From positions 28,778 to 92,777 of the forward strand of contig CAYHDI010000001.1 in NCBI GenBank assembly GCA_964355645.1: DNA of 64,000 nt, written 5' to 3'. Made by a program: the position numbers and the translations under genes. Origin of the DNA: an uncultured Candidatus Saccharibacteria bacterium (GTDB lineage Bacteria > Patescibacteriota > Minisyncoccia > Phycocordibacterales > Zambryskibacteraceae). Below, one piece after another: positions 3,114 through 56,870 of the stretch. Within the stretch, counting starts at the first letter, position 1. The number at the start of each line of letters is the position of its first letter. Under the pieces are notes generated by a model, which saw only the letters and a list, made by a program, of their open reading frames with translations, searched no databases and was not told the origin of the DNA.

Positions 3114-3176
3114 ACTGTTCTTTTATATATTAGGGAAATTGACAGACTGGGGATAACCCATTAAACTCCTATAACC

Positions 3177-3761
3177 ATGCTCGAATACAGCGAAATTACT
3201 GAACACAAATACATTGTTTTTGAAAATGAACCGTACGAGGTTTTGGGCGCCCATGTTTTCAGAAAACAACAGAGAAAGCCGGTGAACGCGACCAAACTGC
3301 GAAGTATGCTGACAGGTAGAATTGTAGAACATTCATTCCATGTTTCTGATAAGGCTGAAGAGGCTGATATCACCAAGAAGGAAGTGAAATATCTTTATAC
3401 GAACAAGGGCGAATTCTGGTTCTGTGAATCGAAAGATCCATCGAAAAGATTTGAACTGCCTGAAGTGATGATTGGAACTGCATCTAAATTTTTAAAACCA
3501 AATACAATTGTGGATGCCATGATTTGGGATGATGGGAAATCTGATGAAGGGAAAATCATTGGCCTGAAACTTCCAATTAAGATGGATTTGAAAGTGACCG
3601 AAGCTCATCCAGCGACGAAAGGCAACACTGCACAGGGTGCAAGCAAAATGGTCGTGCTCGAAACCGGCGCTGAAATCCAAGTCCCTATGTTTATCAAAGA
3701 AGGCGATGTCATTCGGGTAAATACTGACAACGGCGAGTATACGGATAGAATAACTAATTAG
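3177..3761 (+). CDS. efp: translation elongation factor P
   Basis: full-length alignment to EF-P (KLRSMLTG, YLYTNKGEFWF, GEYTDR motifs). Confidence 0.9.
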   Translation: MLEYSEITEHKYIVFENEPYEVLGAHVFRKQQRKPVNATKLRSMLTGRIVEHSFHVSDKAEEADITKKEVKYLYTNKGEFWFCESKDPSKRFELPEVMIGTASKFLKPNTIVDAMIWDDGKSDEGKIIGLKLPIKMDLKVTEAHPATKGNTAQGASKMVVLETGAEIQVPMFIKEGDVIRVNTDNGEYTDRITN

Positions 3762-5471: not shown

Positions 5472-6254
5472 CTACTTTAGCACTAAGTTAAACATTCGGC
5501 AAGTGTTGGAAACTAAGGCTTTTTGGACAGTTTCCAAATCCTCTCCTCTTATTTCAGCGATTTTCTTCACTACCTCTTGCACATAGCTCGGCTCGTTGCG
5601 CTTGCCTCTATAAGGAACTGGCGAGACCCATGGGGCATCAGTCTCGGACATAATCATATTGAGTGGTGCATTCTTAATCACTTCATCATAATCTCGAGCA
5701 AAGGTTATCACTCCCGTGAATGACGTGGTGAATCCTATGGTCCAAAATCTTTTGGCTTGTTCGAGTGAACCGGTGAAAAAATGCAAATCCCCTCGAAGTT
5801 TTGGACCGTACAATTTAGCCAATGGTTCAAGGATTTCGAGAATTTCTTCGTACGCATCACGAGAGTGAATCATGATAGGTTTGTTGTGTTTAATAGCAAA
5901 GTTAATCTGCTCAAAGAAAAGATTTTTCTGTCTTTCAAAGTCTGTTGTTTTGTCTGTATGAAAAAAATCTAGCCCGCATTCCCCTATCGCGACTACTTTC
6001 GGGTGGTTTATTAATTCTTCAAATTTGTCTTCCTCAAAAACTATTTTGGGATCATCGACCGGATGAACACCAATACACGCATAAATTTCTTCGTGTTTTT
6101 CTGCGAGTTCTACTGCCCGTTTAGATGATTCGAAGTCTACACCCACTACAATTGTATGGGTTCCAGTTTCCTTGAGCCGATTGATGACTTCTTCTAAATC
6201 TTCACTGTAGTCAGGCAAATTTAAATGCGAATGTATATCAAAATATTTAGGCAT
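5472..6254 (-). CDS. tatD: TatD-family metal-dependent hydrolase/DNase
   Basis: FDIHSHL, GECGLDF, TDAP motifs. Confidence 0.88.
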   Translation of the reverse strand: MPKYFDIHSHLNLPDYSEDLEEVINRLKETGTHTIVVGVDFESSKRAVELAEKHEEIYACIGVHPVDDPKIVFEEDKFEELINHPKVVAIGECGLDFFHTDKTTDFERQKNLFFEQINFAIKHNKPIMIHSRDAYEEILEILEPLAKLYGPKLRGDLHFFTGSLEQAKRFWTIGFTTSFTGVITFARDYDEVIKNAPLNMIMSETDAPWVSPVPYRGKRNEPSYVQEVVKKIAEIRGEDLETVQKALVSNTCRMFNLVLK

Positions 6255-7706
6255 TTATAGTGAGCTTGTCGAACTATCTTTTCTTAAAAATAATGGTTCG
6301 CTTGGTTTCTTGTTTTCTTTTATTAGTTTCTGTATTTTTAATGCTGTATCAGGCATAAATGGGGCGAGCGCGTCTGCTACTCCACGAAGACCCGTGACTA
6401 ATTCGGAAATAATTTCTTTCGCTTTTTCTGGATCAGTTTTAACTAATTTAAATGGTTCTGTTTCTTGAATTTTTTTATCTAATTCTGCAATTTTTTCCCA
6501 AACTAAATTCATCGCCTTGGCTATTTCAAATTTTTCTAATTCACTTCCAATGGCCAACACTCGGTGTTGGCCAATTGGAACATCCGAATATTTTTCGGCC
6601 ATAGTCATAATTCTTGAGGTCAAATTCCCTATCCCATTCGCTAATCCTGAATTATAAGCTTCATTAAATCTCTCCCAGGTGAAATCGGAGTCTTCAAAAG
6701 TTGAGAGTTCCCTGCACACAAAGTATCTAAGAGCTTCAGCACCGTATTTCTCAACCACTTCTACGGGGTTTATCACGTTGCCTAGGGACTTGGACATTTT
6801 TTGACCATTTGCGCCCTGTATAAAGCCATTTATGACTATTTGATAAGAGGTTGGAAGACCGGCAGACATAAGCATGGCTTGCCACATAGCTGATTGTTGT
6901 CTAAGATTGTCCTTGCCCGCGTATTGAGTTGGATTGCCGTTGGCCCAATACTTTTCAAAATTTTCTTTGTTTTCGGGCCAACCGAGAGTGGAAACATAAT
7001 TAACCAAAGCATCAAACCAAACGTACATCACGTGGTCTTCATCTCCGGGAACAGGAATCCCCCAACTCATTTTTGACTTTAAGCGCGAGATAGAGAAATC
7101 TTCCAGTCCCCTTTCTACGAATGCTTTAATCTCATTAAACCGAAAATCCGGCACTACAAAATTTGGATTATTCTTGTACAAATCCAAAAGAGGTTTTTGA
7201 TATTTAGAGAACCTAAAGAAATAATTTTCTTCTTCTCTTTCTTCTAATTCAAGATTTGTATGAATACTACATCTTCCATTTTCAAGTTCTGAATCCGTTT
7301 TCTCCAATTCACAACCAATACAATATTTAATCTTGTAATTCTTTTTATATATATCTCCATTTGCCTCACATCTCTTCCAAAATTCTTGAGCCGATTTTAT
7401 ATGATGTTCATCTGTGGTGCGAATAAAATGTATTTCTGGGTCAATATGTAAATCAATAAGTATTTGTTTAAAATATTGGACGTATTCATCAACATAGCTT
7501 TGGGGGTCTTTGTTCTCTTCTACAGAACGTTGGTATATTTTTATTCCGTGTTCATCTGTGCCTGTATTAAAAAATACTTCAAAACCAATCAATTTTTTAT
7601 AACGATTTACAACATCGGCTCGTATAAATTCCATAGCGTGTCCTATGTGAGGTTGTCCGTTTACATACGGCAGGGTCGTGGTGATATAAAAACTTTTTCG
7701 GCTCAT
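6255..7706 (-). CDS. metG: methionyl-tRNA synthetase (core only, no C-terminal tRNA-binding domain); contains in-frame palindrome at 6552-6572
   Basis: P-x-x-NG-x-PHIGH, zinc knuckle CxxC, KMSKS. Confidence 0.92.
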   Translation of the reverse strand: MSRKSFYITTTLPYVNGQPHIGHAMEFIRADVVNRYKKLIGFEVFFNTGTDEHGIKIYQRSVEENKDPQSYVDEYVQYFKQILIDLHIDPEIHFIRTTDEHHIKSAQEFWKRCEANGDIYKKNYKIKYCIGCELEKTDSELENGRCSIHTNLELEEREEENYFFRFSKYQKPLLDLYKNNPNFVVPDFRFNEIKAFVERGLEDFSISRLKSKMSWGIPVPGDEDHVMYVWFDALVNYVSTLGWPENKENFEKYWANGNPTQYAGKDNLRQQSAMWQAMLMSAGLPTSYQIVINGFIQGANGQKMSKSLGNVINPVEVVEKYGAEALRYFVCRELSTFEDSDFTWERFNEAYNSGLANGIGNLTSRIMTMAEKYSDVPIGQHRVLAIGSELEKFEIAKAMNLVWEKIAELDKKIQETEPFKLVKTDPEKAKEIISELVTGLRGVADALAPFMPDTALKIQKLIKENKKPSEPLFLRKDSSTSSL

Positions 7707-8766: not shown

Positions 8767-10037
8767 TTGCCCAATAATAGCACCTTTTTAAGATTTTTCT
8801 CGTTTCTAATATCTCCTACCACCGCGAGGTTCAGATTCTTGTTTTGGAAAATTTCCTTGGCCACTTTCATGATGTCTTTGGCTGTGACCTTCTCTATTTC
8901 GATTCTCGATTGTTCAGGAGTTTTTATCGAACGTTTCAAAACTTCTTGGATACCATAAAATTCGGCAAGAGAATCAGAAGTTTCTAAGCCCAAGTACATT
9001 CGACCAATCATGAGGTTTTTTGTTTTTTTAAGTTCTGAGACATCTACCGGTTCAGTAGCAAATCTTTTGAGTTCTTTTAGAATAACTTCAATTACTTCAT
9101 TTACACGTTTTGAATTTACACCAACAGCCATTTCAAATGTTCCGTGGTCGGTATATCTGTCAGTTTCAGCATGAACATAGTAGCAAGCCCCCATTTCGTC
9201 TCTAAGTTTATGGAAAAGCCTTGAAGACATGCCTTTTCCTAAAATAGCAGCGAGAACTTTGAGAGTTGGCAAACGTTTGTCAAAAATATTATAAGCTCTA
9301 AAACCCAAAATAAGATGGGTTTGATCAGTTTTTTTGTATTTTATTATAACTTGTGGTGTTTTTTGGATTTCTATAACTTTTTTCTTTGGAGTTTTCTCTG
9401 TGGTAGAAATATCTTTAAAGATTTTCTCAACATCCTTAAAAACTTTTTTTGAATCACATTTACCAGCCACAATTACAGTTGTAGCCTGTGCCACATAATG
9501 CTGTTGGCGATATTTAATAAAGTCTTCTCGCTTCATATCACGAATGACTTCAGCGGGACCCAAAATACTCCAACCGGCCGGTTGATCTCCGTACAAAAGC
9601 TTCATGAACAATCTGCCCACATCTCGTTGAGGCAAATCTTCATTCATTGAAATCTCCTGGAGAATAACTCCTTTTTCTTTTTGCATTTCAGTTTCAGAAA
9701 ATATTGGGTTCAAATACATATCAGAAATAACATCAAGAATTTTATGGTATTGGCTGTGCTCTGCTTTCGCATAATAAGCCGTGAGTTCTTGAGAAGTGAA
9801 AGCGTTGGATTCTGCCCCTAAACTATCTAATTCTTTGTGAATGATAGCGGGGGTTGGTCGGCGTTTGGTGCCTTTGAAATTCATGTGCTCAAGAAAGTGC
9901 GAAATACCACTTTTGTTCTTGGTTTCGTATTTTGAACCCGCTTCTACCAAAACGAGAACCGTCACCGTCTTTGCGTCCTTCATTGGGACAGCCACAATTC
10001 GCATCCCGTTTTTAAGTATTTTCTTTTTATATTTCAT
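8763..10037 (-). CDS. M16 family zinc peptidase (insulinase-like)
   Basis: HFLEHM (HxxEH) inverted zincin motif near N-terminus. Confidence 0.85.
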   Translation of the reverse strand: MKYKKKILKNGMRIVAVPMKDAKTVTVLVLVEAGSKYETKNKSGISHFLEHMNFKGTKRRPTPAIIHKELDSLGAESNAFTSQELTAYYAKAEHSQYHKILDVISDMYLNPIFSETEMQKEKGVILQEISMNEDLPQRDVGRLFMKLLYGDQPAGWSILGPAEVIRDMKREDFIKYRQQHYVAQATTVIVAGKCDSKKVFKDVEKIFKDISTTEKTPKKKVIEIQKTPQVIIKYKKTDQTHLILGFRAYNIFDKRLPTLKVLAAILGKGMSSRLFHKLRDEMGACYYVHAETDRYTDHGTFEMAVGVNSKRVNEVIEVILKELKRFATEPVDVSELKKTKNLMIGRMYLGLETSDSLAEFYGIQEVLKRSIKTPEQSRIEIEKVTAKDIMKVAKEIFQNKNLNLAVVGDIRNEKNLKKVLLLGK

Positions 10038-10061
10038 AGTGAGAAGAGTGTACCAGAAATT

Positions 10062-10097
10062 AAGAATAAAAGAAAAAGGCCACTACTAGAGTGGCGC
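10062..10097 (-). terminator. intrinsic terminator (minus): GCCACT-ACTA-GAGTGGC plus T-run
   Basis: seen directly, immediately 3' of 10086-10277 ORF. Confidence 0.6.
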
Positions 10098-10277
10098 GAG
10101 CTCATCAATCCTGGCCATCAACCTTTCGATGGCCTCCAGATTCTTGGCCCTCAAAGCCGCCTGTTCTGGAGAGAGTGGGGCCATGTGAATGAATGCCAGA
10201 TTCTGCTCTTGGTGTCTTTGAAGATCGTCCATAAGGAGACCAATCTCACTACCAAACTCAGAAGTGCTGCTTGTCAC
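10086..10277 (-). CDS. small GC-rich hypothetical protein (63 aa)
   Basis: ORF with GC well above neighbours, own terminator, inserted between peptidase and glyQS. Confidence 0.4.
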   Translation of the reverse strand: MTSSTSEFGSEIGLLMDDLQRHQEQNLAFIHMAPLSPEQAALRAKNLEAIERLMARIDELAPL

Positions 10278-10330
10278 GATCTTCCTCCCAGGAATGGTCT
10301 ACAACCAACCTACACCTATTTAAACCTTTG

Positions 10331-11551
10331 TCAAATTGTCTCTTTTAGATTCGCAATCTTCGCTCTCTTCTGTTCCCCTGTGTCTCTATCACGAACAGTC
10401 ACCGTATCATCTTTCAAAGTATCAAAATCAATAGTGATGCAGGCCGGAGTACCTATCTCATCTTGTCTGCGATATCTCTTACCTATATTCCCATTATCAT
10501 CAAAAACAATTTGAGGAAAATCTTTCTTGAGCATCATATAAACCTCTCGGGCCTTGGCCACCAACTCTGGCTTGTTTTTCAAAAGTGGAAAGACTGCTGT
10601 CCGAACTGGCGCAATATTTTTTGAAAGTTTTAGGAAACTCCTCTTTTCTCCCCCGAGTTCATCTTCAGTATAAGCCGAGGACAAGACTGCAAGGATTGTT
10701 CGATCCACTCCGAAAGTCGGTTCAATCACGTGTGGAGAAAATCTATCTCCAGATTCTTCATCAAAATATTCAAGCGGTACACTGCTCGAAGCACTGTGGT
10801 TTTTCAAATCAAAATCAGTTCTGTAAGCAAGACCATATAATTCTTTCTTACCAAAAGGAAAATCAAATTCGAAATCTACAGTGCGTTTAGAATAATGCGC
10901 TCTCTCTTCTTCTGGGACTTCAAGTTCATGAATAGAATTTTTCGGCAGGCCGATTTCTTTCATCCAATCAAACATTTGTTCTTTCCAACTTTCGAAAAAA
11001 TCTTTCCAGTCTTTCTCTCGCACGAAATATTCTATTTCCATTTGCTCAAACTCTCGTGTTCTGAAGATAAAATCTCTTGGTGAAATCTCGTTTCTGAAAG
11101 CCTTACCAATTTGAGCCAAGCCGAAAGGCAATTTCGGATGAAAGGCATCAACTACATTTTTGAAATTTACAAACATTCCTTGCGCAGTTTCCGGACGAAG
11201 ATATGAATCAATCGCCTCTTCCCCTGCCCCAACAGCCGTCTTGAACATCACATTAAACTGCTTCCCTTCTTCGGTCGGATCGACGAATCCAGCCACATGT
11301 CCGGACGCTTCCCAAACTTTCGGATTCATAATAATAGCTGCATCAATCCCGAACATATCATCTCGGTTTTCTACAAATTTTCTCCACCACAAAGATTTGA
11401 TATTGTTTTTTAAAGTGACACCCAAAGGCCCATAGTCCCAAGTACCAGCTAGTCCGCCATAAATCTCTGAACCTTGAAAGATAAATCCGCGTCTTTTGCA
11501 GAGCGATATAACCTTGTCCATGAGTTCCGAATCTTTGGATATCATTTCCAC
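10331..11551 (-). CDS. glyQS: glycyl-tRNA synthetase, class II dimeric (GlyQS) type
   Basis: RRGFIFQGSEIYGGLAGTWDYGPLG N-terminal signature. Confidence 0.9.
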   Translation of the reverse strand: MEMISKDSELMDKVISLCKRRGFIFQGSEIYGGLAGTWDYGPLGVTLKNNIKSLWWRKFVENRDDMFGIDAAIIMNPKVWEASGHVAGFVDPTEEGKQFNVMFKTAVGAGEEAIDSYLRPETAQGMFVNFKNVVDAFHPKLPFGLAQIGKAFRNEISPRDFIFRTREFEQMEIEYFVREKDWKDFFESWKEQMFDWMKEIGLPKNSIHELEVPEEERAHYSKRTVDFEFDFPFGKKELYGLAYRTDFDLKNHSASSSVPLEYFDEESGDRFSPHVIEPTFGVDRTILAVLSSAYTEDELGGEKRSFLKLSKNIAPVRTAVFPLLKNKPELVAKAREVYMMLKKDFPQIVFDDNGNIGKRYRRQDEIGTPACITIDFDTLKDDTVTVRDRDTGEQKRAKIANLKETI

Positions 11552-13516: not shown

Positions 13517-14026
13517 CTAATCCGCTAGATGACTGGCCTCCAAACCTTTATTAATAGCCTTAATTAGGTCCTTTTTAGGAAGTTTTAAATCAACTTCTTT
13601 TAAATACCCAAGATGGAAAAGAATTTGTGAGACAAAATGAATTTCAAACATTTCATCTCGACTAGCAAGAACGGTTCTTGCTAGAATTTCGCGTGTCGCT
13701 TCAAAAAGTTCTGGATTCGGGGCTTCGCCTTGAACTAATTTCTCAAGAAGTATGAGGGGTTTCAAAATTTCAGGTGTTGAAAGAATAGTCTTTATAAATT
13801 CTGCAGAAGTGATTCTCCAATATTCTTTGCCCCGTACAAGAGAAACCGAAACAAAGGAAATCGGCTCGAGTAATCCTCGAAGCTTGGAATGCCCCTTCCT
13901 CACCCCCGTCGCTGTGGCTCTTATTAGCCCCAAATCCTTTGTGAGTATTGAATAAACCCTATCCGCTTCGCGTAGAGGCCTGTATGAGAGCACCAAACCT
14001 TCTGTGGTGTGTATTGTGTAAGACAC
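13517..14026 (-). CDS. recO: DNA repair protein RecO (short form)
   Basis: N-terminal OB-fold pattern EGLVLSYRPLREADRVYSILTKDLGLIRATATG. Confidence 0.65.
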   Translation of the reverse strand: MSYTIHTTEGLVLSYRPLREADRVYSILTKDLGLIRATATGVRKGHSKLRGLLEPISFVSVSLVRGKEYWRITSAEFIKTILSTPEILKPLILLEKLVQGEAPNPELFEATREILARTVLASRDEMFEIHFVSQILFHLGYLKEVDLKLPKKDLIKAINKGLEASHLAD

Positions 14027-14045: not shown

Positions 14046-17000
14046 TTAAGAATTACGAATTGTGATATTCGTAGCCCTTTTAATCTCTTCATTATATTTC
14101 TTAAATATTTCTCTTTCTTCATCTGGCACAACATAAGACATCACATCTTTTGGTTTTAGATTCTTTTCTTTTCTCATTTCTTGAATCGAACGAATAATGT
14201 CTCGAACTTTGCCTTCCTCGGCAAGTTCTGGAGTGATATTTGAATCCACTAATACATCTTCAGAAACTACATATTTAATTTCTTTTACATTCACTTCATC
14301 TTTTATAAGTTCTTCATAAACATCTAATCGTTGCATTGATAAAGATTGAAGCGGTTGTCTTATTTTGATTCCGGCTTTTGCTCTTGCTTCTAAACCTCGA
14401 GAAACAATCTCTCTCGTTTTATTCATTCTTGAGATAATATCTCCATTTACATTTTTATCTTCTAAAGGCCACACATCCAAATGCACACTTTCCAAATCCT
14501 CTTCTGTTCGAAGTTTCTGATACAGTTCTTCTGCATAGAATGGAGTGAATGGTGCGAGGAGCTTAGAAATTGTTTTCAAGACAAAATACAAAGTCTGCTT
14601 CGCATCTTCGTCTCCTTCTTTGATTCGCTCGCGGGAACGACGAAGATACCAAGTCGAAAGGTCATCGACGAAATCTCGAATGGCACGGGTAGGTTCGAGA
14701 AGTTTGTAGTTATCAAGATTCTCTGTAGTTAACTTAATTAACTCATTCAATCTTATGAGAATCCATTGGTCGAGAATATTTCCACTCCCCGACACCCCAC
14801 CCTTGCCCTCCCCTTGATAAGGGGAGGGTTGGGAGGGGTCAGCATAAAGTTCATAGAAAGAATAAATGTTGTCGAGCATATTGAATACTCGTTTATTAAC
14901 TTCATCCACCGTCTTGTCATCAAAGTTTTTTGAATCCCCTGGTTGATTGATTGAGTACATCCAGAAACGCACCGCATCTGCGCCGTGTTTCTCCATAGAT
15001 TCAAACGGGTCTACCACATTACCCACTGACTTGCTCATTTTTTTGCCTTCCTTGTCCAAGAGTAAACCGAGGCAAATCACATTTTTGTAGGCTGCACCTC
15101 GATTCATGAGCACTCCTATCGCGTGCATGGTATAGAACCATCCACGAGTTTGATCAAGTCCTTCAGAGATAAAATCAGCTGGATAAAGAATTTTTGAGAA
15201 ATCCCCCGCTTTTTCTCGATTGTCAGAATCTTGAGAGAAAGGCATTGAACCGGAATCAAACCAAACATCCATCACTTCCTTCACTCGTTTGTATTCCTTC
15301 CCATTTTTCTCTAGGACAACTTCATCAATAAATGGTTTATGCAGATCAAGTTCAAAATTCGCGTTGTGCGGAAAAGGAACAAAATCTATTTCTTTTATTT
15401 CTGCATTCTTAGGATAATTTTCTGCTTCTATGTCATCCCCTATTTGTTCAGCAGTCAAACCTTTTGAACCAAGAATCATGTTCATGATTGGGGCACCATG
15501 ACTTATAAACAAAATATTTTTACCTGAATATTTGTTTTCATATTCTTCTAAGACTGTCATCACCCGAAACTTTGTATCGGTATAATTTTCCCCATCAGGG
15601 TTATTTTGTTTGTATCTATCTGAATAATGTTCATATCTAACCAAAAAATCATCCATTTTTTGGTTTTGATATTTATGGCCCGGATCAAATTCAATCAAAC
15701 GGTTATCTACGATGATTTCATTTTCGAAACCAATGGTTTCTTTAATAAGTTCTGAAGTTTCTTGTGCTCGCAGAATTGGAGAACGAATAATAATATCAAT
15801 TTTCTTATTCTTCAAACTTTCGGCCATTTTTTTCACTTGTTCTATACCCAACTCCGTCAAATGATTATTTGGATCTCCTTCTGAATCCCAAACCTTATTC
15901 ACATTATTCATGGCTTGACCATGTCGAACAGCGAAATATTTGTTGCCGGATTTTTTGGAATATTTCTTCAGGGTTTCAACCGAATCAACGACGATTCTAT
16001 CCTTCCCATCTATTGATGATTCTGCAAGCCAGATTGGAAGAGGTGTGCCCCAATATCTTTCTCGACTAATGGCCCAATCTTTCGCTTCTCGGAGCCATTC
16101 ACCAAAACGACCTTCCTTAATGTGAGAAGGTTCCCAATTTATCTTTTCATTTTCTTTGACCAATTTGTCTCGGAGCTCTGACATCCTGATGTACCAAGAA
16201 TCACGGGCATAATAAATCAATCGAGTCTTGCATCTCCAACAAAACGGATATGAGTGAGTATAATTTTCTTTCTCAAAAAGCAAGCTCCGATTTTGTAAAT
16301 CTTTCAAAATATCTACTGCCAGAGTTTCGTCCACCACCGAACGACCTTCGAGCCAATCCGTGCCTTTCATAAATGTTCCTTCCGGAGTGACTAGGTGAAC
16401 CTTTGGTAAGCCGACTTTCGTCCCAAGTTCGAAGTCATCTTGTCCATACATCACAGCTGTATGTACAATGCCCGTCCCATCTTCGGTGTTCACAAAATCC
16501 GCAGGGTAAACCCTGAAAGCCTTATCATCTTTTTTAATAAATGGATAAAGCGGTTCATATTCAAGGCCGACCAAATCCTGACCTTTAATTTTCTCAATAA
16601 TCTCGTATTCTCCTTCAACCACTTTCAATCTTGATTCAGCCAAAATTAAAATTTCATTTTCTTTTTTTATTTTTACATAATCAATTTTCTCCCCCACAGC
16701 AAGCCCGACGTTCCCCGGGAGAGTCCACGGTGTAGTGGTCCAAGCAAGCAAATATGTTCCCGGCTCATCGACTAGTTCAAACTTCGCTGTAATGGTTAAA
16801 TCCTTTACATCTTTGTACCCTTGAGCAAGTTCGTGGGTTGAGAGAGTGGTGCCACAACGCGGACACCAAGGTACAACTTTGTAATCTTTATAGAGTAAAT
16901 TCTGCTTTTCAACTTCGGAGAGAATCGACCAGATAGATTCCATAAACGGATTATGATAAGTCACATACGCGTTGTCATAATCCGCCCAATATCCCATACG

Positions 17001-17426
17001 GTCGCTTAATCTTCTCCATTCATCCACATAAGTCCAAACGGATTTTTTGCACTCATCATTAAATTTCTCTACGCCGTATTCTTCAATTTCTTTTTTGCTT
17101 TTTAGTCCAAGCTTTTTCTCCACTTCGAGTTCTACAGGTAAACCATGAGTATCCCAACCAGCTTTTCTGCGGACATGAAATCCGCGCATGGTTTTGTAAC
17201 GCGGAATAGCGTCCTTAAACGCGCGAGCTTCGACGTGATGAATACCCGGCTTGCCGTTCGCAGTCGGGGGTCCTTCATAAAACACAAATTCACCCTTGTC
17301 AGCGGGCTTCTTTAGAGTCTTTTCAAATATTTTATTGTCTTTCCAGAACTGGAGAATTCTTTCTTCTCTCTCTGATCTGGTAAGCCTTTTATCTTCAGGT
17401 TTACCCTGAGTCTCATCGAAGGGCAT
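14046..17426 (-). CDS. ileS: isoleucyl-tRNA synthetase with inserted histidine-phosphatase domain and in-frame palindromic element
   Basis: class I motifs (P-x-x-NG-x-xHHV, W-ISRERYWG, KMSKS); 190-aa RHG...SHG insert at 15372-15938; palindrome at 14796-14839. Confidence 0.9.
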   Translation of the reverse strand: MPFDETQGKPEDKRLTRSEREERILQFWKDNKIFEKTLKKPADKGEFVFYEGPPTANGKPGIHHVEARAFKDAIPRYKTMRGFHVRRKAGWDTHGLPVELEVEKKLGLKSKKEIEEYGVEKFNDECKKSVWTYVDEWRRLSDRMGYWADYDNAYVTYHNPFMESIWSILSEVEKQNLLYKDYKVVPWCPRCGTTLSTHELAQGYKDVKDLTITAKFELVDEPGTYLLAWTTTPWTLPGNVGLAVGEKIDYVKIKKENEILILAESRLKVVEGEYEIIEKIKGQDLVGLEYEPLYPFIKKDDKAFRVYPADFVNTEDGTGIVHTAVMYGQDDFELGTKVGLPKVHLVTPEGTFMKGTDWLEGRSVVDETLAVDILKDLQNRSLLFEKENYTHSYPFCWRCKTRLIYYARDSWYIRMSELRDKLVKENEKINWEPSHIKEGRFGEWLREAKDWAISRERYWGTPLPIWLAESSIDGKDRIVVDSVETLKKYSKKSGNKYFAVRHGQAMNNVNKVWDSEGDPNNHLTELGIEQVKKMAESLKNKKIDIIIRSPILRAQETSELIKETIGFENEIIVDNRLIEFDPGHKYQNQKMDDFLVRYEHYSDRYKQNNPDGENYTDTKFRVMTVLEEYENKYSGKNILFISHGAPIMNMILGSKGLTAEQIGDDIEAENYPKNAEIKEIDFVPFPHNANFELDLHKPFIDEVVLEKNGKEYKRVKEVMDVWFDSGSMPFSQDSDNREKAGDFSKILYPADFISEGLDQTRGWFYTMHAIGVLMNRGAAYKNVICLGLLLDKEGKKMSKSVGNVVDPFESMEKHGADAVRFWMYSINQPGDSKNFDDKTVDEVNKRVFNMLDNIYSFYELYADPSQPSPYQGEGKGGVSGSGNILDQWILIRLNELIKLTTENLDNYKLLEPTRAIRDFVDDLSTWYLRRSRERIKEGDEDAKQTLYFVLKTISKLLAPFTPFYAEELYQKLRTEEDLESVHLDVWPLEDKNVNGDIISRMNKTREIVSRGLEARAKAGIKIRQPLQSLSMQRLDVYEELIKDEVNVKEIKYVVSEDVLVDSNITPELAEEGKVRDIIRSIQEMRKEKNLKPKDVMSYVVPDEEREIFKKYNEEIKRATNITIRNS

Positions 17427-17441: not shown

Positions 17442-19046
17442 TCACATCCTTTCTGGAGCGGGAATACCGAGGATAGTTAAGCCGTTTTTCATGACTGTAT
17501 TGAAAGCGCGAGTGAGAGCGATGAGGTATGAAGATTCTGGTTTGTCAGAAATGATTTGTTCGTTCGCATAAAGATTGTTGAAACTACCTGCAATTTCGGT
17601 TAAATATGTAGTAAGAAGATTTGGAGAATATTCTACACACGCTCGTTCAACAATTTCTGGGAATCTATAAAGAAGTTTTTCAACTACACGCACCTCACCT
17701 ACCGCAAGCGGTCCCCCCTCCCCTTGCCAAGGGGAGGGCTGGGAGAGGTGTACCTTAGCTTTCTCTAAAATTGAACATGTTCGCGCATAAGCATATTGAA
17801 GATAAACACCAGAATCACCTTCGATTGAAACCGATTTTTCTATATCAAAAATAATATCGTTGCCGACTGATTGACGAAGAATCATATATTTTATTGCTCC
17901 TATGGCTACTTGTTCATCGCCTTTTGTTTTTTCCTTCACACTCTCGATTAAAGTTTCTGCCTCTAATGCACCACCAGATCTAGAACTCATTTTGCCCGTA
18001 GGTAAGCGGAGCATACCGTGCCCAATATGTTTGGTAATCTCTGCGAGTTTGGGAGAAATAAGTTTAAGTGCTTGAAGCAACACTTTAAAATAAGCATTGA
18101 CCTCATTGCCCGTCACCACGATTGATTTGGTGTATGGATATTTCTCAAACTTTATTGGGGCTAAGCCAAGTTCTTTGGCTTCATAGGTTGGGATACCTTC
18201 TGAATTTATAAAGACACGAGTATGAAGCGCTTTATCATAATTTTCTGCATGAAAGACAACGGCTCCATTCTCCCCTGCTTCGAAAACTTTTCCCATATTT
18301 TCCTCTACGATTTTCTTGCCTCTTGGAGCTGATTCCGATTCAAAGAAAAAATAGTCAAAATGACTGCCTAATTTTTTATAAATAGAATCAAAATATTCTA
18401 AACTAGCTTTTCTACCTTCATCATAAAGTTTGTTTATAGATTCATCCGAACGATTATATATCTTTTTATTTATTTCTTGGATTTCTTTTCTGATATTCTC
18501 ATCTTCTTCAAATTTCTTATTCCCAAAAACATACGGCTCATTTGAGCCTTGCATTGTTCCCCAGACAGCTTTGGCTACATGAATTCCCACATCACCTTGG
18601 TAGCAAGCTTGTTTCACTTCGGCGCCGTTCCATTCAAAAATATTCGCGAGTGTTGAACCAACTACATTGGGCATAAGGTGACCAATATGGAATGACTTGA
18701 AAGGATTTGGGTCGGTGTGCTCCACCATCACCTTCTCTCCTTTTAAACTTTCATTCTTTCCAAATTCACTACCCTTCTCTACAATCTCTCCAATACTTCT
18801 CTTGAAAAATTCCTTGGATAAATAAAAATTTATGAAGCCGGACTTCAATTCTACTTTTTCAATCTCACTTGGGTGTCGGACAGCCAAGTAATCAACAATC
18901 TCCTGGGCCTTCTTGGAAACAATTCCAGCGTTGGTTGTATAGTCCCCGAAAGCAAGGTTCGTTGGGTGTTCTACTATGAATTTGGCGTTTTTAGTGCCAA
19001 CACTTTCTAAGGCCTTTTTGACTAGATTTTCTATAACTTTTTTCAT
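17442..19046 (-). CDS. argS: arginyl-tRNA synthetase with in-frame palindromic element (17714-17750)
   Basis: FHIGHL HIGH-motif, catalytic core and DALR anticodon-binding C-terminus. Confidence 0.9.
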   Translation of the reverse strand: MKKVIENLVKKALESVGTKNAKFIVEHPTNLAFGDYTTNAGIVSKKAQEIVDYLAVRHPSEIEKVELKSGFINFYLSKEFFKRSIGEIVEKGSEFGKNESLKGEKVMVEHTDPNPFKSFHIGHLMPNVVGSTLANIFEWNGAEVKQACYQGDVGIHVAKAVWGTMQGSNEPYVFGNKKFEEDENIRKEIQEINKKIYNRSDESINKLYDEGRKASLEYFDSIYKKLGSHFDYFFFESESAPRGKKIVEENMGKVFEAGENGAVVFHAENYDKALHTRVFINSEGIPTYEAKELGLAPIKFEKYPYTKSIVVTGNEVNAYFKVLLQALKLISPKLAEITKHIGHGMLRLPTGKMSSRSGGALEAETLIESVKEKTKGDEQVAIGAIKYMILRQSVGNDIIFDIEKSVSIEGDSGVYLQYAYARTCSILEKAKVHLSQPSPWQGEGGPLAVGEVRVVEKLLYRFPEIVERACVEYSPNLLTTYLTEIAGSFNNLYANEQIISDKPESSYLIALTRAFNTVMKNGLTILGIPAPERM

Positions 19047-21034: not shown

Positions 21035-21083
21035 TTAAAAAAATTGCAAACAAATAGGCCGGTCGCAGAGTCTGCGACCGGCC
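21035..21083 (-). terminator. intrinsic terminator (minus): 12-bp stem GGCCGGTCGCAG-AGTC-CTGCGACCGGCC plus T-run; second small hairpin+T-run at 20995-21015
   Basis: seen directly downstream of GC-rich ORF 21134-21670. Confidence 0.7.
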
Positions 21084-21133: not shown

Positions 21134-21670
21134 TTACCTGCCCGCGATTTTTCTCGCCAACGTAAACGTGCGGGAAGAGACACCGCACTCTAGCGCTTCC
21201 TCTACCTCGAACAACTCCCTGATCGCCTGAACGTGCGTCACTTTTCGGCCATCGATCATGGTGACCGTGGTGCCCGCTAAACCAAATCGATCTGGATATG
21301 GTTGCACACGCACGAGCACCTCCATCGCTGCACCGATGGAACCATGCTCCCCGAAATCCACGACCGATGTCTCAATGATGTGACTTCCCCGGCGCCACCT
21401 CGCTTCCACGATCCTCTCTGATGTAGCTGTGGTTACCGTCGCCATGAGACCCCAGGCATCGAATTGGTAATTCCTCCTCGACGCCGTGCCTGTGGAATCT
21501 GCCCAGGTGTCAATAGCATTGGGCACCCACCACACATCAAGCGGTGGAACACTAGCGAATACTCGCGCCACGATTTCATAAAAACTTCGCGCAGCGTTTG
21601 GATCGGTCGCACATGACAAACATTCGATTCTCTTTACTCTCACTGTATTATCCTCACGACTTGTGCCCAC
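21134..21670 (-). CDS. GC-rich hypothetical protein (178 aa), compositionally foreign
   Basis: long ORF with strong terminator; no recognisable motifs. Confidence 0.5.
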   Translation of the reverse strand: MGTSREDNTVRVKRIECLSCATDPNAARSFYEIVARVFASVPPLDVWWVPNAIDTWADSTGTASRRNYQFDAWGLMATVTTATSERIVEARWRRGSHIIETSVVDFGEHGSIGAAMEVLVRVQPYPDRFGLAGTTVTMIDGRKVTHVQAIRELFEVEEALECGVSSRTFTLARKIAGR

Positions 21671-21900
21671 TTGGCAGTGAGCGTTTCTCGCTACGAGGAT
21701 AGACTAGAATAGTCTTCGCCATAGCTTCAAATTTACGAGTGTGCAACATCGAATGTTGCACAATTCATACACTCAAAGCTGTGGCGAATTGTGTTTGCAA
21801 GTAGTTAAAGAACTTAACCACATTTAGTATACACCTTTTATGTGTTTTGTCAAGGACTTTCTTGAGTACCAAAAAGAGCCTTGTTTATAGGCTCATTTTA

Positions 21901-21978
21901 CGCCCCCTCTTAATGTAAGAGGGGGTTGGGGGTGTTATAACCCCTCCCTTACCCTCCCCTTATATTAAGTGGAGGGAA
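21901..21978. repeat. two tandem GC-rich palindromic elements (CCCCCTCTTAATGTAAGAGGGGG-TTGGGGGTGT and CCCTCCCC-TTATATTAA-GTGGAGGG) of same family as in-frame inserts in ileS/argS
   Basis: seen directly; shared CCCTCCCC...GGGGAGGG TTGGGRG core. Confidence 0.8.
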
Positions 21979-21998
21979 ATAAATTCGTCAGGACGATT

Positions 21999-24594: not shown

Positions 24595-25164
24595 TTAATT
24601 ATAACTCGGCGCGGACTCCTTTATACCAGACTTGTGGTTCGAGAGTCGAGCCAAGGCATAAAGAATACTTGAGAGACGATTCATGAATTGAAGGGTTTCT
24701 GCGCCGAGCTCCACCGCTTTTAGCGGGGCCCCGCCAGAGGCGGTGGTTACTCCAACCACTCGCCTCTCAGCTCGACGGGCAATGGTTCGAGCCACATCGA
24801 ATGTCGCACCGAGCTCCGTACCTCCAGAGATGAAGAAAGTTTTAATCGGAGGCATTTCTTTCTCTGCGAGGTCAATCCAATTTTCAACTTCTTTCACTTT
24901 CTCGCCAGAGAGATGCTTGTCCGCTCCGGCTACTTCGGCTTGAACCATGAACAAATTTTCTTGAAGACGATGAACAATTTCTTCGAAACTCTTTTCTCCA
25001 ATTTTAAATCCGGCTTCTGCAGACTTAACTTTGCACAAACCCAAGAATGAATTTATCTCATCGAGAGAACCGAGGGTCTCGGCAATATTCGAGCTCTTAG
25101 AAACCCTTTGGTCACAGCCAAAAGTTTTCGTTGTTCCATCATCACCCTTCTTGGTATAAAGCAT
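24595..25164 (-). CDS. PduO-type ATP:cob(I)alamin adenosyltransferase (MMAB family); contains palindromic element at 24721-24756
   Basis: YTKKGDDGTT N-terminal signature. Confidence 0.85.
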   Translation of the reverse strand: MLYTKKGDDGTTKTFGCDQRVSKSSNIAETLGSLDEINSFLGLCKVKSAEAGFKIGEKSFEEIVHRLQENLFMVQAEVAGADKHLSGEKVKEVENWIDLAEKEMPPIKTFFISGGTELGATFDVARTIARRAERRVVGVTTASGGAPLKAVELGAETLQFMNRLSSILYALARLSNHKSGIKESAPSYN

Positions 25165-25537: not shown

Positions 25538-25565
25538 GAATGTGAGTACTCTTCAAGAATAATAA

Positions 25566-25639
25566 GTTTTCGTGCCTTGCGCAGGCCGACGGGCCGAGCA
25601 GAGCAAATTTCTAGCAAGAAATTATGTGTGCAAAGAAAA
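25566..25639. repeat. 74-nt conserved element, copy 1 (93% identical to 31298-31371); contains hairpins GGCC-GACG-GGCC and AATTTCT-AGCA-AGAAATT
   Basis: seen directly; 5 mismatches in 74 nt. Confidence 0.85.
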
Positions 25640-25643
25640 ATTA

Positions 25644-26063: not shown

Positions 26064-27137
26064 TTATGGCAAATCCCTAACAAATTTTTTATATCTATGA
26101 ATCAAACTTCGCATGCTTTGTGATTTTGTATGAGATAAATGGCCTAAATATGAAGAAAAGGATTGATTGAATTCTCCTTTTGTTGATTTTCCATTTTGTA
26201 AGTTATAAGTCATTTTTCCTAACTTTTTTTGTATTCTTTTTTTAGTTTTAGTTCTAGGCACAACGTGATAAGGCATTGCAACGGCTCCTAAAAAATCTAC
26301 ACCTTGGAGAAACGAACGGATACTAACCTTACTTGGATGTAATTCGAGCTTTAAATGTTCTATTAAAAACTTTTGTATAGGATAGATAAATAGATTCAAT
26401 TTTTCACGACTCGAATCAAGGATAACAAAATCATCGCAGTATCTAATGTAATTTTTACTTATTTTGGTTTTAATAAACCAATCAAACTTGTTCATGTATA
26501 CATTAGCGAAAAGCTGACTGGTAACATTACCGAGAGGTAAACCCTTCCCTGATATTTTATGAAAGGTATCAATTATCTTCGCCAATAAATCTAAGGTTTT
26601 CTTGCATTCAATTTTTTCTTTTAGGAGATTATTTAAAATATTGTGGTTAATTGAATCAAAAAACTTTCGTATATCACACTTGAGCGCATAGGTCTGACCT
26701 GTGTAGTTTCGACTGATTTTTCGAGACATTTTGACAAGTCTATCTATACCTGCATGAGTACCCTTGCCCGTTCTACTAGCATACGAATCAAAAATAAAAT
26801 CATTATCAAAAATTGGATACAAAACCTGATGGATGGCTTGATACAAAACCCTATCTCGAACTGAGGCTTTATGAATCTTTCTTGGTTTTGGATCACGAAT
26901 AGAAAAAGATGTATATCCATCACATGTCCATTGTCCTGAAATTAGTTCTTTTTGAAGCCCAAAAATGTTATTCTCAAGATTGAGAGAAAAATTTACAATA
27001 TCAAGTTTTTTGTTTTTGTTTTTTTTGAATTCTCGCCAAGCGAAAAATAAATTCTCGAGCGAAATAATTTTATGGAAAATACTTCTATCAAGACCCCCCC
27101 CCCCAACGGTATTTTGGTGGCTCCGATTATCGTTCAT
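26064..27137 (-). CDS. DGR-type reverse transcriptase (first ATG 27137; ORF track start 27143 is TTG)
   Basis: RT domains with LPLGNVTSQ (DGR-specific I/LGxxxSQ motif 4) and YCDDFVIL (YxDD); no maturase/endonuclease domains; N-terminal GGGG encoded by (G)11 tract. Confidence 0.88.
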   Translation of the reverse strand: MNDNRSHQNTVGGGGLDRSIFHKIISLENLFFAWREFKKNKNKKLDIVNFSLNLENNIFGLQKELISGQWTCDGYTSFSIRDPKPRKIHKASVRDRVLYQAIHQVLYPIFDNDFIFDSYASRTGKGTHAGIDRLVKMSRKISRNYTGQTYALKCDIRKFFDSINHNILNNLLKEKIECKKTLDLLAKIIDTFHKISGKGLPLGNVTSQLFANVYMNKFDWFIKTKISKNYIRYCDDFVILDSSREKLNLFIYPIQKFLIEHLKLELHPSKVSIRSFLQGVDFLGAVAMPYHVVPRTKTKKRIQKKLGKMTYNLQNGKSTKGEFNQSFSSYLGHLSHTKSQSMRSLIHRYKKFVRDLP

Positions 27138-27461
27138 GTGCAAAAATTATATCAGGAATTATACATAATCGCCGAACAAATTCCGAAGCGAGATAAGCTT
27201 GGCCTACATGCCGAGATTGAGAAAACTTGTATCAAAACACTCTCACTCTGTATTCAGGCATCACTGGCTTCTAAAGGTGACAAATTTTCTTTAATTCGTG
27301 ATATAAGAGTATTAATAGAAACAATGAAATACCTTATTCGCGTTTCTCATGAACTTTTAATCATTAATCAGAAAAAATATATTTCTTTGGAATCAAAACT
27401 GCAGGAAATTTCTAAGATGGCTAACGGGTGGGAGAGATATGCAACAAACAATCCCGCTTAA
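27072..27461 (+). CDS. avd: Avd-like accessory variability determinant (four-helix-bundle, TIGR02436-like), antisense to RT; possibly starts at GTG 27112
   Basis: IPKRDKLGL...KY...L.EI.KM.NGW pattern of Avd/four-helix-bundle family; (C)11 tract 27094-27104 in N-terminal codons. Confidence 0.7.
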   Translation: MENTSIKTPPPNGILVAPIIVHVQKLYQELYIIAEQIPKRDKLGLHAEIEKTCIKTLSLCIQASLASKGDKFSLIRDIRVLIETMKYLIRVSHELLIINQKKYISLESKLQEISKMANGWERYATNNPA

Positions 27462-27482
27462 GCGGGATTGTTGTAAAACTTC

Positions 27483-27816: not shown

Positions 27817-28524
27817 TTAGACACAAACCCTGCGGGAACCGAGGTGCGAATCGCGACTCGTCGGAGCGTACCAGCCCACGCCCGACTTGCCGCCGCCCCC
27901 GTACGCGCCCGGCACGTCGCCACTCGAATCGCGAGAACCTGAATTGAGTGTCCAGGTCTGGCGGTCGGGATGGTGGCCGTGCTTCAGGAAATACATCGCC
28001 GAGAACAGCGCGTACTCGAGATGAGTCGATGTCTTGATGCCCATCTCGGCGATTTGGTTCGCCGATTTGTTCATCAGATTCTCGTCCGGGGTTTCCGAGT
28101 CGAGCATCAGCACGACGTACGAATCATTCCCGGGATTGCGCTCGTCCTTGTGGGTCGGAATGGCAAGATCGAGGGAGTCGCTCGTGTACTTCCAACACGG
28201 GAAGAGTTTCTTCCGAGCTTGGAACACGTCCTCCTTCGGTTCGCCATTCGTCCACTCGACGAGCTCGCGCATCATGGGTACCGCGAGGTACTGCCGAGCA
28301 TCCGGGGCCCGCGGGATGAAAAGGTTCGAGAAGTCCAGGGCCTTGCCGAAGAGCTTTTCGTACAACACCGACATGAACGAAACGTCGATGTTGCTGTCAA
28401 CCACTTGCGTGGCGACAGCAACCTTCTTCACCAGAGCGTCCCGAAGACGCCGAGCGAGAAGCGAAGGATTGCTGATGTAGCGCTGTTGCTCCTTCGTTGT
28501 GAGAAGTGGCAACTGCGCGAGCAC
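27817..28524 (-). CDS. DGR1 target (variable) protein; VR at 27833-27940 encodes C-terminal CLec-like NSGSRDSSGDVPGAYGGGGKSGVGWYAPTSRDSHLGSRRV
   Basis: VR/TR pairing; GC-rich gene; no signal peptide evident. Confidence 0.8.
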   Translation of the reverse strand: MLAQLPLLTTKEQQRYISNPSLLARRLRDALVKKVAVATQVVDSNIDVSFMSVLYEKLFGKALDFSNLFIPRAPDARQYLAVPMMRELVEWTNGEPKEDVFQARKKLFPCWKYTSDSLDLAIPTHKDERNPGNDSYVVLMLDSETPDENLMNKSANQIAEMGIKTSTHLEYALFSAMYFLKHGHHPDRQTWTLNSGSRDSSGDVPGAYGGGGKSGVGWYAPTSRDSHLGSRRVCV

Positions 28525-28717: not shown

Positions 28718-29449
28718 TTATGGCTTAAAATCTATCTTTTTAAAGGCTTCTAGGAAATCCTCTGGGAAATTGGCCAACACTCGGTGTTGACCACCTTTAG
28801 TATCTACGAACACTACCTCTCGAGCATGAAGGGCAAGACGCTTGAATCCGAGCATCATGGGTTTAGTCGAGGCATAGAGTTTGTCTCCTATCACTGGTCG
28901 TTGAAGAGATTGAAAATGCACCCGAATTTGATGCGTGCGGCCAGTCTTCGGCTTGGCTTCCACAAGAGTTATCCCTTCTGCCCGTTTGAGCACTCTAAAG
29001 TATGTGACCGCATCTCTCATCTCCCCCGTGGCTCCTCGACCAGCAGAATATTTGCGAAAATCGCTCGGGCTCTTGCCTATCGGCATGCTGAGTGTCCCAT
29101 GGTTTTCTTTCATGTTGCCGTACACAAATGCATAGTAAGTTTTTTGAATTTTTCTATCAAGAAATTGCTTTTTTAGACACTCGAAACCTTTTTGAGTTTT
29201 CGCCAGGAGAAGAACACCAGAAGTATCTCGGTCCAGACGATGCACAATCCCACTTCGATCAATAATCTCCCCACCCTCAAGTCGAATCATTTCTCCCACA
29301 TTCTTCGCTTCAGGATATTTTTCTACGAGCCATTCCGAAACAGATGGCTCCTTGGTCCGTCCATCACTATGCACCACAATCCCCGCCGGTTTGTTCAGTG
29401 CGAGAATATCTTCGTCTTCATAAATAATGTTGGGTGTGAGATCGGTCAT
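28718..29449 (-). CDS. RluA-family pseudouridine synthase; contains in-frame palindrome at 28771-28790
   Basis: HRLDRDTSGVLLLAK catalytic motif. Confidence 0.88.
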   Translation of the reverse strand: MTDLTPNIIYEDEDILALNKPAGIVVHSDGRTKEPSVSEWLVEKYPEAKNVGEMIRLEGGEIIDRSGIVHRLDRDTSGVLLLAKTQKGFECLKKQFLDRKIQKTYYAFVYGNMKENHGTLSMPIGKSPSDFRKYSAGRGATGEMRDAVTYFRVLKRAEGITLVEAKPKTGRTHQIRVHFQSLQRPVIGDKLYASTKPMMLGFKRLALHAREVVFVDTKGGQHRVLANFPEDFLEAFKKIDFKP

Positions 29450-42858: not shown

Positions 42859-43440
42859 ATGATTGCCACTCTAAAGGGTCTGGTCACCCACAAGGATCTC
42901 CATATGCTCATAGTTGATGTGAAGGGTGTGGGCTACAAAGTTTTCGTCCCCACAGACACCGCTCTCGACGCCCTGCCGGGTCAAGAAATTTCACTTTGGA
43001 CCTATCTCTCCGTGAGAGAGAACGCTCTTGATTTGTTCGGATTTAAAGATAAAGAAAATTTGGATCTTTTCGAACTACTCATCGGAATTTCGGGTATTGG
43101 CCCGAAAACGGCCCTCGGAATACTGAATGTCGCTTCCCCATCGATGCTTAGACAAGCAGTAGCCGAAGAAGATACTTCGTATCTCACTCGAGTTTCTGGG
43201 ATTGGCAAGAAAAATGCAGACAAGATTGTTCTCGAACTTCGAGACAAACTAATCACCACTTCGGCAGACACGGGTCTAAACATGCGGGCAGAAGGTGATG
43301 CCTTGGAAGCCCTTGTTTCCCTCGGCTATACAGAACGTGATGCACGCGAAGCTTTGAAAAAAGTCCCAAATAATCCGCCAGCTGGCGGAGAAAACCCGAG
43401 CGAACGAGTGAAGCAAGCCCTAAAAATACTTTCCAGGTAA
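42859..43440 (+). CDS. ruvA: Holliday junction branch-migration protein RuvA; contains in-frame NPPAGG palindrome (43374-43389)
   Basis: N-terminal OB domain and two HhH motifs (GIGPKTA, GIGKKNA). Confidence 0.9.
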   Translation: MIATLKGLVTHKDLHMLIVDVKGVGYKVFVPTDTALDALPGQEISLWTYLSVRENALDLFGFKDKENLDLFELLIGISGIGPKTALGILNVASPSMLRQAVAEEDTSYLTRVSGIGKKNADKIVLELRDKLITTSADTGLNMRAEGDALEALVSLGYTERDAREALKKVPNNPPAGGENPSERVKQALKILSR

Positions 43441-56390: not shown

Positions 56391-56870
56391 ATGGAAGATT
56401 TATCAAACTACAATAAGCTACGAGAAGATTCCTTAAATTTCTACAACAATATTGGAAAAATATTTTCTCCGATTTTCAAGGAAGAAATTTATTTCAGCGC
56501 AGAAGGATTCAATCATATTGTTTTCAAAGGATCACGATCAGAAAGGGAAAAGTCGTCTCAAATATTAAGATTCAAACTTTTACCTCTAGCCACAAAGCTA
56601 ATACAAATATCAACTACCTATCAAGAATTCGAGGAAACACTAAAAGAGTTTGAGGTTAAAAGTTATAAAAAACGAGTTAGAAAAACACGACCTGTGAAAT
56701 ATTGGGGTATCATTGCCATTATTGACGGAAGAAAAATTAAGGTGATTGTTAGAAAAATCGGAGACAATGGTCACCTTCATTTCTGGAGTATTGTACCAGC
56801 ATGGATGACAAACAAGTATCGCGATATAAAACTTTTTAGCACAATGAAGGGAAACCCTGAAGAAGATTAG
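56391..56870 (+). CDS. hypothetical protein (159 aa)
   Basis: ORF followed by terminator CACCGCCAGAGGCGGT (56881-56908). Confidence 0.4.
   Translation: MEDLSNYNKLREDSLNFYNNIGKIFSPIFKEEIYFSAEGFNHIVFKGSRSEREKSSQILRFKLLPLATKLIQISTTYQEFEETLKEFEVKSYKKRVRKTRPVKYWGIIAIIDGRKIKVIVRKIGDNGHLHFWSIVPAWMTNKYRDIKLFSTMKGNPEED

Follow-up and report, generated by a model that had tools for sequence, protein, structure and literature searches.

Rickettsia palindromic elements (RPEs), reportedly brought to notice by Ogata in 2000, are 100-150 bp long and add 30-50 amino acids, and we know of no transposase associated with them. Systems made of repetitive extragenic palindromic (REP) sequences and REP-associated tyrosine transposases (RAYTs) in Proteobacteria are said to have been treated by Nunvar in 2010. 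These REP/RAYT (TnpA-REP) assemblies, or 'REPtrons', have been described in Proteobacteria (Ton-Hoang 2012, PMC3333891; Corneloup 2021, PMC8266576), including the co-evolution of RAYT and REP and a REP group with perfect palindromes (Corneloup et al. 2021, PMC8266576). Intragenic REPs have been catalogued as well, notably in DNA-repair genes, tRNA synthetases and pseudouridine synthases, as insertions adding residues, where dimers add 20-30 aa (Di Nocera et al. 2013, PMC3733652). Nevertheless, REP/RAYT systems are prevailingly viewed as extragenic and mostly proteobacterial. Here, two palindromes lying in frame in the genes metG and rluA are compared with those systems; they occur in a 64-kb window (the whole stretch of DNA analyzed, 64,000 nucleotides of contig CAYHDI010000001.1) from an ultra-small Parcubacteria/Paceibacteria-type bacterium of the candidate phyla radiation (CPR) obtained from Hainich groundwater. 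With a probability of roughly 0.7, both are solo copies of a REP-like hairpin cognate to a RAYT-like HUH/Y1 transposase widespread in Parcubacteria/CPR, and the best reading of the whole is a REP/RAYT-type system native to the CPR with an unusual intragenic behavior. Literature text searches, which left several terms uncovered, returned no description of this system in CPR, of a hairpin inside the transposase open reading frame (ORF) or of a length-neutral recurrent occupancy.

The 19-mer TGGCCAACACTCGGTGTTG occurs exactly twice in the window, at 6551-6569 in metG (methionyl-tRNA synthetase, MetRS, 483 aa, 6255..7706, minus strand) and at 28771-28789 in a gene for an RluA-family pseudouridine synthase, here called rluA (243 aa, 28718..29449, minus strand). 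An earlier note on this DNA had reported the pair as identical, as well as its in-frame reading as GQHRVLA in both minus-strand ORFs, and both observations are borne out: a match was obtained in 0/100 shuffles, and after triplet shuffling the 19-mer pairs per window number 0.00 (direct) and 0.05 (inverted). The metG copy, TGGCCAACAC-TCG-GTGTTGGCCA (6551..6573), is read as (I)GQHRVLA(I) and is a perfect palindrome, as first described, with a 3-nt loop and a stem of 10 bp rather than the 9 bp given before; the near-palindrome around it spans ~37 nt (about 6544-6580) and folds at -23.4 kcal/mol (z = -5.4). Regarding the rluA copy, TGGCCAACAC-TCG-GTGTTGACCA (28771..28793), read as GGQHRVLAN, it bears a single arm mismatch, C/A on the plus strand and a G.U pair in the mRNA, and its 23-mer is identical to the 23-mer flanking a RAYT ORF in another genome (locus L016, see below). 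It could be argued that two unrelated proteins happen to have GQHRVLA in the same codons through chance and a convergent protein motif, as among about 21,000 codons a chance match between unrelated proteins should reach roughly 7 aa at its longest (our estimate). However, all codons are identical, no more than 0.05 such 19-mer pairs are expected in a window, the matching stretch forms a 10-bp palindrome in its own right, and the same 23-mer is found in non-coding DNA and beside RAYT genes elsewhere, so that this explanation, already contradicted by the metagenome copies, the RAYT modules and the identity among rluA orthologs, is hardly credible. The proposal that the palindromes are DNA-level elements lying in frame in unrelated genes stands, and a shared protein domain fails to explain them.

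When the two sites were compared with orthologs, simple insertion was rejected, as the alignments show that neither protein is lengthened; hairpins 'landing' in coding sequence, as had been supposed, is not what metG and rluA display, and fits only the ATR gene treated below, where 6 aa are added. In an alignment of 120 MetRS homologs, the metG site is a variable inter-helix loop, at which the clade of the window is equal to, or 2-3 aa shorter than, other MetRS and has the peptides VQHQMLD, VQHSVLN, VKHSVFN, EQYSMLH and GQHRVLT. The AlphaFold model places the heptapeptide in a lower-confidence loop between helices of the anticodon-binding domain (residues 374-386). In RluA, the region from LALHA to PEDF shows zero length variation across 120 homologs, and the heptapeptide forms the last strand of the C-terminal beta-hairpin in the AlphaFold model (pLDDT about 98). 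There, the hairpin peptide coincides with the family-conserved H, V and A residues, with which the family consensus G-E-x-H-T-V-x-A already agrees, and this is probably why the site tolerates the hairpin. Conserved protein motifs, which the earlier note had considered unlikely to account for the copies, thus apply in part, at those three residues of rluA.

With the hairpin excluded, the rluA orthologs of two other loci (L014 and L015) are only 58-61% identical to the window gene at the DNA level (32-34% at third codon positions), and within the hairpin they share 21/21 bases. Such identity across divergent orthologs indicates a signal at the DNA level and not a shared protein motif. In the closest relative genome the relation is reversed, with 79% identity in the rest of the gene and 5/21 bases in the hairpin. 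The rluA clade to which the window belongs reads GGA ATC GAG CTG ACT ATC AAA GCT at the site. On an RluA tree with the site masked, at least 6 gains or losses are needed for the 10 hairpin-bearing sequences, and the distribution of the hairpin contradicts the phylogeny of the host gene. Besides, rluA orthologs reading GQHSVLA have the same stem with an inverted loop, TCG for CGA on the coding strand; both orientations are found, and the orientation decides whether the central residue of the peptide is R or S. At the same codons of metG orthologs, paired stem changes convert GGC..GCC to GGT..ACC and CAC..GTG to CAT..ATG, and one metG relative carries the inverted loop (TCG). In the closest relatives, rluA has no hairpin and the metG site shows only a decayed quasi-palindrome; nothing there suggests a replacement structure.

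As no RAYT is present in the window, the link to a transposase rests on other genomes. In L016/L017, two copies of the hairpin, 739 nt apart, directly flank a 227-aa ORF, and a third copy lies within this ORF, read as GQHSVLT. The ORF of L016 (2835..3518) matches the Pfam family Y1_Tnp (PF01797) with 44.4 bits (cutoff 23, E = 2e-11) and contains the motifs NHFH (HUH) and YIHRNP, and a PDB sequence search with this RAYT gave as best match ISDra2 TnpA, a weak one (E = 0.34). Its protein family has >4,000 members at E < 1e-5 and, among the top matches listed with a source name, all come from CPR lineages or unclassified bacteria. The position of the module varies within one syntenic gene cluster, and comparison with the empty site in L031 shows that the whole module is inserted in L016.

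Six such modules were examined (L016, L029, L031, L035A, L035B and L036), and each RAYT ORF has its own variant of the hairpin stem, whose copies lie 13-31 nt ahead of the ORF, in frame ~170-190 nt into it and 3-16 nt past its end. The internal copy is found in 6/6 modules and both flanking copies in 4/6 (L016, L029, L031 and L035A). The stems are GTTAAACAC in L029, GTCCAAAGC in L031 and GGTCAACAC in L035A, each in the upstream, internal and downstream copies; GGTCAAAGC in L035B, on the same contig as L035A, with upstream and internal copies and none downstream; and GTCCTAAGC / GCTTTGGAC in L036, with internal and downstream copies sharing a mismatch and none upstream. Within one module the copies are identical to each other, including the shared mismatch of L036, while the stems differ between loci and covary; the flanks of the hairpin are T/A, often AACT...AGTT. 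A heptad that is fully reverse-complement-compatible, with S or R at its center, is present in 89/120 RAYT homologs (for example VQSRALD, VKHSVFN and GQSSALT) vs 0/360 control windows, and the peptides VKHSVFN, VQHSVLN and GQHRVLT of the metG site are the same set as inside the RAYT ORFs. The L035 contig also offers a natural specificity pair, as its paralogous RAYT genes at 6023-6706 and 9936-10604 go with the different variants GGTCAACAC and GGTCAAAGC.

The hairpin could also be a nucleic-acid signal selected by the host independently of any transposase, as an mRNA stem-loop (for decay, pausing or termination) or a binding site of a host protein, which the RAYT gene merely shares or targets. 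This is consistent with the perfectly conserved synonymous positions in divergent rluA orthologs, the paired stem substitutions in metG orthologs, the stable mRNA folds and the position of some solo copies just after genes, such as the one past the AbiEii gene of L013. A host signal is nevertheless improbable, since in the closest relatives the rluA hairpin is missing, the metG site has no more than a decayed quasi-palindrome and no substitute structure is evident, the distribution is patchy, with at least 6 changes on the tree, the stem mismatch common to the L036 copies points to copying rather than selection for pairing, and the stem variants follow individual RAYT paralogs on one contig. 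Taken together, that shared mismatch, the paralog-specific variants and the identity of the hairpin across saturated orthologs argue for copying and not for selection on pairing.

Beyond the modules, the hairpin is dispersed in CPR metagenomes with a 23-nt consensus, TGGCCAACAC-TCG-GTGTTGRCCA; the stem has 9-10 bp, the loop is TCG or CGA (3 nt) and the T...A ends are conserved. The metG and rluA palindromes are assigned to this family with high confidence. A 19-mer scan of species-representative genomes gave 10 matches, of which 5 complete the palindrome with RCCA; the other 5 lie in random frames of long ORFs, at about the number expected by chance (about 4 by our estimate). The complete copies group in two metagenome-assembled genomes (MAGs), three contigs of one 'Saccharibacteria' and two of one labelled Gammaproteobacteria. 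In metagenomes, the 23-mer was found at 8 loci with GC contents from 0.32 to 0.57: in intergenic DNA, as a solo copy 29 nt after an AbiEii toxin gene (L013), within a GT4 glycosyltransferase, where it is read in frame as FGQHSVLTM, and at the same rluA codons in two further organisms. The in-frame copies of metG, rluA and the glycosyltransferase always read G-Q-H-[S/R]-V-L-[A/T]. A phage origin was rejected, as the 19-mer gave 0 matches among IMG/VR viral contigs. As a separate observation, two regions of one MAG (L006 3250-3570, minus strand, and L009 450-680) carry the 23-nt hairpin directly after a promoter-like TTGACA-17-TCATAAA; next come ~70 conserved nucleotides and an extended self-complementary stretch ending in ACTTATCCCCA; this element looks like an unannotated structured RNA and has no match in Rfam.

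A third hairpin in the window, TGTGCAACAT-CGA-ATGTTGCACA (21740..21762), is extragenic and lies upstream of a GC-rich ORF (21134..21670). Its architecture is that of the metG and rluA copies, with TG...CA ends, a 10-bp stem and a CGA loop, and by this architecture it probably belongs to the RAYT-linked family; its stem variant is found beside none of the RAYT genes examined. The possibility of a RAYT pseudogene in the 800-nt gene-poor region at 21183-21999 was rejected, as tblastn gave no signal there. The 178-aa ORF itself has no Pfam match and was not called by the gene caller of the source contig, and it is bounded on one side by the TGTGCAACAT hairpin, itself preceded by a promoter-like site, and on the other by a strong terminator hairpin. 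At gathering thresholds, Rfam recovers 8 tRNAs only in the window and gives no match at six hairpin loci, so a known RNA family was rejected as the identity of these hairpins.

Regarding the mode of action, an enzyme-driven replacement is the mechanism that we infer. The transposase would recognize the folded single-stranded hairpin and would copy or replace hairpin cassettes from site to site, and this exchange would keep the copies of a genome identical by concerted evolution. Intragenic copies would then survive only where the encoded heptapeptide is tolerated, as may be the case in a surface loop of MetRS and in the beta-strand of RluA whose conserved H, V and A match the hairpin codons. 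The occupancy of rluA is equal in length, in the same register and recurrent in both loop orientations. An alternative origin in place, by intrastrand template switching on quasi-palindromic coding sequence (H-x-V as CAC...GTG), followed by spread through homologous recombination or DNA uptake between Parcubacteria, would make the likeness to RAYT systems secondary. The RluA consensus that already fits the hairpin at H, V and A, the equal-length replacement in rluA, and the loop inversion together with symmetric arm changes, which are classic outcomes of template switching, would all suit this origin. It would, however, leave unexplained why unrelated genes and intergenic DNA carry one and the same 23-mer in genomes whose GC ranges from 0.32 to 0.57, as well as the triple copies around RAYT ORFs, and the sequence of the window's rluA clade offers little microhomology at the site; such an origin is thus considered unlikely.

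Several observations weigh against the REP/RAYT-type reading. The L016 ORF scores 38.4 bits against the NCBIfam model REP_Tyr_transpos (NF047646), below its cutoff of 80, and tblastn of the L016 RAYT against the 64-kb window found only noise at E > 4 and no RAYT homolog. The copy number appears low, as the 64-kb window has 3 copies (two intragenic) and one MAG has 3 on three contigs, and no extra copies were found in the ~20-kb loci around four RAYT modules (L029, L031, L035 and L036). At the foot of the hairpin, the GTAG or CGTC tag of the described REP superfamilies was not found. In addition, the known 'peel-and-paste' chemistry of Y1 enzymes is an insertion of DNA and fails to explain an in-register, equal-length replacement in rluA, whose site is a structured beta-strand invariant in length among the 120 homologs.

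It is conceivable, although on balance doubtful, that a CPR-specific Y1 transposase overwrites ~21-27 nt in register at existing or hairpin-like sites ('cassette replacement'). If so, the hairpins of metG, rluA and RAYT genes would evolve in concert within a genome, the targets would include codons of essential genes and the transposase's own ORF, and the same codons would be rewritten recurrently, in either loop orientation and at constant protein length, amounting to a new mode of length-neutral, transposase-driven editing of coding sequence. Should the enzyme keep the copies identical, the system would provide a tractable natural case of sequence-specific, length-neutral rewriting of coding DNA by an HUH enzyme and a marker of concerted evolution in as yet uncultured organisms. 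On the practical side, short peptides such as GQH[RS]VLA, VKHSVFN and VQSRALD in CPR proteins are footprints of a DNA hairpin and not functional protein motifs.

Perfect hairpins (stem >=10 bp, loop of 3-4 nt) are strongly enriched in the window, with 10 vs 0.26 in shuffles, in agreement with the population of hairpins that had been proposed; this population had been taken to be of the CCGCC...GGCGG type, to which the GQHRVLA hairpin does not belong, being of a separate, RAYT-tied family. Of the former type, a 15-mer, ACCGCCAGAGGCGGT, had been assigned both to the PduO-type ATR gene (24595..25164, minus strand) and to a terminator. It is exact at 56881-56895 only, one base from the position first given, whereas the ATR version, CCCGCCAGAGGCGGT, has one mismatch and lies at 24730-24744, about 8 nt from where it had been placed. 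The former is a terminator-like hairpin on the plus strand, ACCGCC-AGA-GGCGGT with the T-rich tail ATCTTTGTTG, 11 nt after the ORF 56391..56870, and it fits the intrinsic-terminator consensus (6-bp stem, 5 GC pairs and a T tract after an ORF) in a consensus scan only. The ATR version nests with GCGGGGCCCCGC and encodes TASGGAP, as described before, and is part of a GC-rich 36-nt compound palindrome, CCACCGCTTTTAGCGGGGCCCCGCCAGAGGCGGTGG (24711..24746; in frame as TTASGGAPLKAV), which contains CCGCCAGAGGCGG and folds at -28.3 kcal/mol (z = -4.6). It encodes the 14 aa VTTASGGAPLKAVE, compared to the 8 aa INQEGLVK of the closest relative genome, a gain of 6 aa, and most ATR homologs are 4-5 aa shorter at this position. 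The palindrome is a lineage-specific replacement, a recent GC-rich block in a 40% GC genome.

The 13/14-mer shared by the ATR and terminator-like hairpins is within chance, as a triplet-shuffled window still holds about 57 direct pairs of 13-mers and about 13 of 14-mers. Both sites are among the five CCGCCAG(CT|A)GGCGG hairpins of the window, of which four lie in frame (ATR, ruvA, fpg and ruvB) and the fifth is the terminator-like one. In ruvA, the palindrome CCGCCAGCTGGCGG (43375..43388) is read as NPPAGG and has the stem of the ATR and terminator hairpins, with sister copies at 45424-45437 (fpg) and 55381-55394 (ruvB); the longer AATCCGCCAGCTGGCGGA lies in frame as NPPAGG in all three genes, which are DNA-repair genes (ruvA 43372-43393, fpg 45421-45442 and ruvB 55378-55399). 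A coincidence of two GC-rich hairpins, and not copies of a mobile element, has slightly less than an even chance of being the origin of the 14-nt match: besides the 14-mer pairs expected, a 5-bp GC stem with a 3-nt loop holds little information, and the flanks of the two sites are unrelated; however, five hairpins of this set are observed where about 0.02 would be expected in the window from composition (our estimate), and the ATR block, rich in GC, is a recent replacement. These hairpins appear to form a second set, separate from the RAYT hairpin and with no enzyme assigned to it.

Considering the remaining hairpins of the window, CCCTCCCCTT-NNN-AAGGGGAGGG, with a perfect 10-bp stem, is in frame in ileS (14806-14828, PSPYQGEG) and argS (17716-17738, PSPWQGEG) and is another intragenic hairpin family, whose copies map to the anticodon-binding domain or its vicinity, directly ahead of Anticodon_1 in IleRS and inside DALR in ArgRS. 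The isoleucyl-tRNA synthetase itself (14046-17426, 1126 aa) has an inserted histidine-phosphatase domain (His_Phos_1) at residues 499-662. Three more perfect hairpins (stems of 10-12 bp, loops of 3 nt) lie in recO (13662-13684, LARTVLAS), between the GC-rich ORF and secE (21057-21083) and after the SIMPL gene (21903-21925). In-gene palindromes of the window are found in ruvA, ruvB, fpg, recO, ileS, argS, metG and rluA.

A diversity-generating retroelement (26064-28524) adjoins rluA, comprising a reverse transcriptase (26064..27143, minus strand, RVT_1), bAvd (27072..27461, plus strand) and a 111-nt repeat pair, 27479-27589 / 27830-27940, 83% identical and probably representing the template and variable repeats; a hairpin with a 12-bp stem (27763-27791) lies just beyond the 3' end of the candidate target gene (27817..28524). 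Among other repeats, two ORFs 1.9 kb apart have in common a 96-nt stretch (1307-1402 / 3174-3269) that is 89% identical and presumably encodes an EF-P-like N-terminus, and a 92-nt repeat (25560-25651 / 31292-31383) is 88% identical with a GC-rich core, GCGCAGGCCGACGGGCCGAGC.

Compared to IS200/IS605 elements, the CPR system is similar in its Pfam Y1_Tnp enzyme of ~220 aa, in having a subterminal hairpin at either end of a unit of ~740 bp and in the insertion of the whole unit relative to an empty site. It differs in that the end hairpins are identical perfect palindromes and not distinct left-end and right-end structures, that one or two divergent copies occur per contig (the L035 pair being diverged paralogs) in place of many identical ones, and that solo hairpins lie away from any transposase gene. 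With RPEs it shares in-frame palindromic repeats that are tolerated within housekeeping genes by a bacterium of reduced genome, but the CPR element has 21-23 nt, causes no net change in length and is linked to a Y1 transposase; an added peptide segment, typical of RPEs, is absent from metG and rluA and is seen only at the ATR palindrome, with +6 aa. As with intragenic REPs, the palindromes of the window occur in repair, tRNA synthetase and pseudouridine synthase genes, and the NPPAGG palindromes of ruvA, fpg and ruvB echo the published repair-gene bias; unlike them, metG and rluA gain no length, and the same codons are used recurrently, with both loop orientations and paired stem changes.

The likeness to REPtrons lies in a single-copy Y1 HUH transposase gene between short cognate palindromes, in solo palindromes dispersed in the genome, in the co-evolution of transposase and hairpin and in the perfect palindromes, which one described REP group also has. 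A Y1 HUH gene tied to the repeat is found in the related genomes only (L016, L029, L031, L035 and L036), while no RAYT lies beside the repeats within the window; cognate palindromes flank the gene in the modules, L035B having the upstream flank only and L036 the downstream flank only. The CPR hairpin differs from REPtrons in having no GTAG tag, an apparently low copy number and a CPR host, and the transposase ORF has a third hairpin copy in frame in essentially the whole family (89/120 homologs). What is unusual for a REP/RAYT system is that the transposase holds its own recognition hairpin in frame, family-wide, and that copies in essential genes occur without lengthening, at the same codons reused across lineages in both loop orientations.

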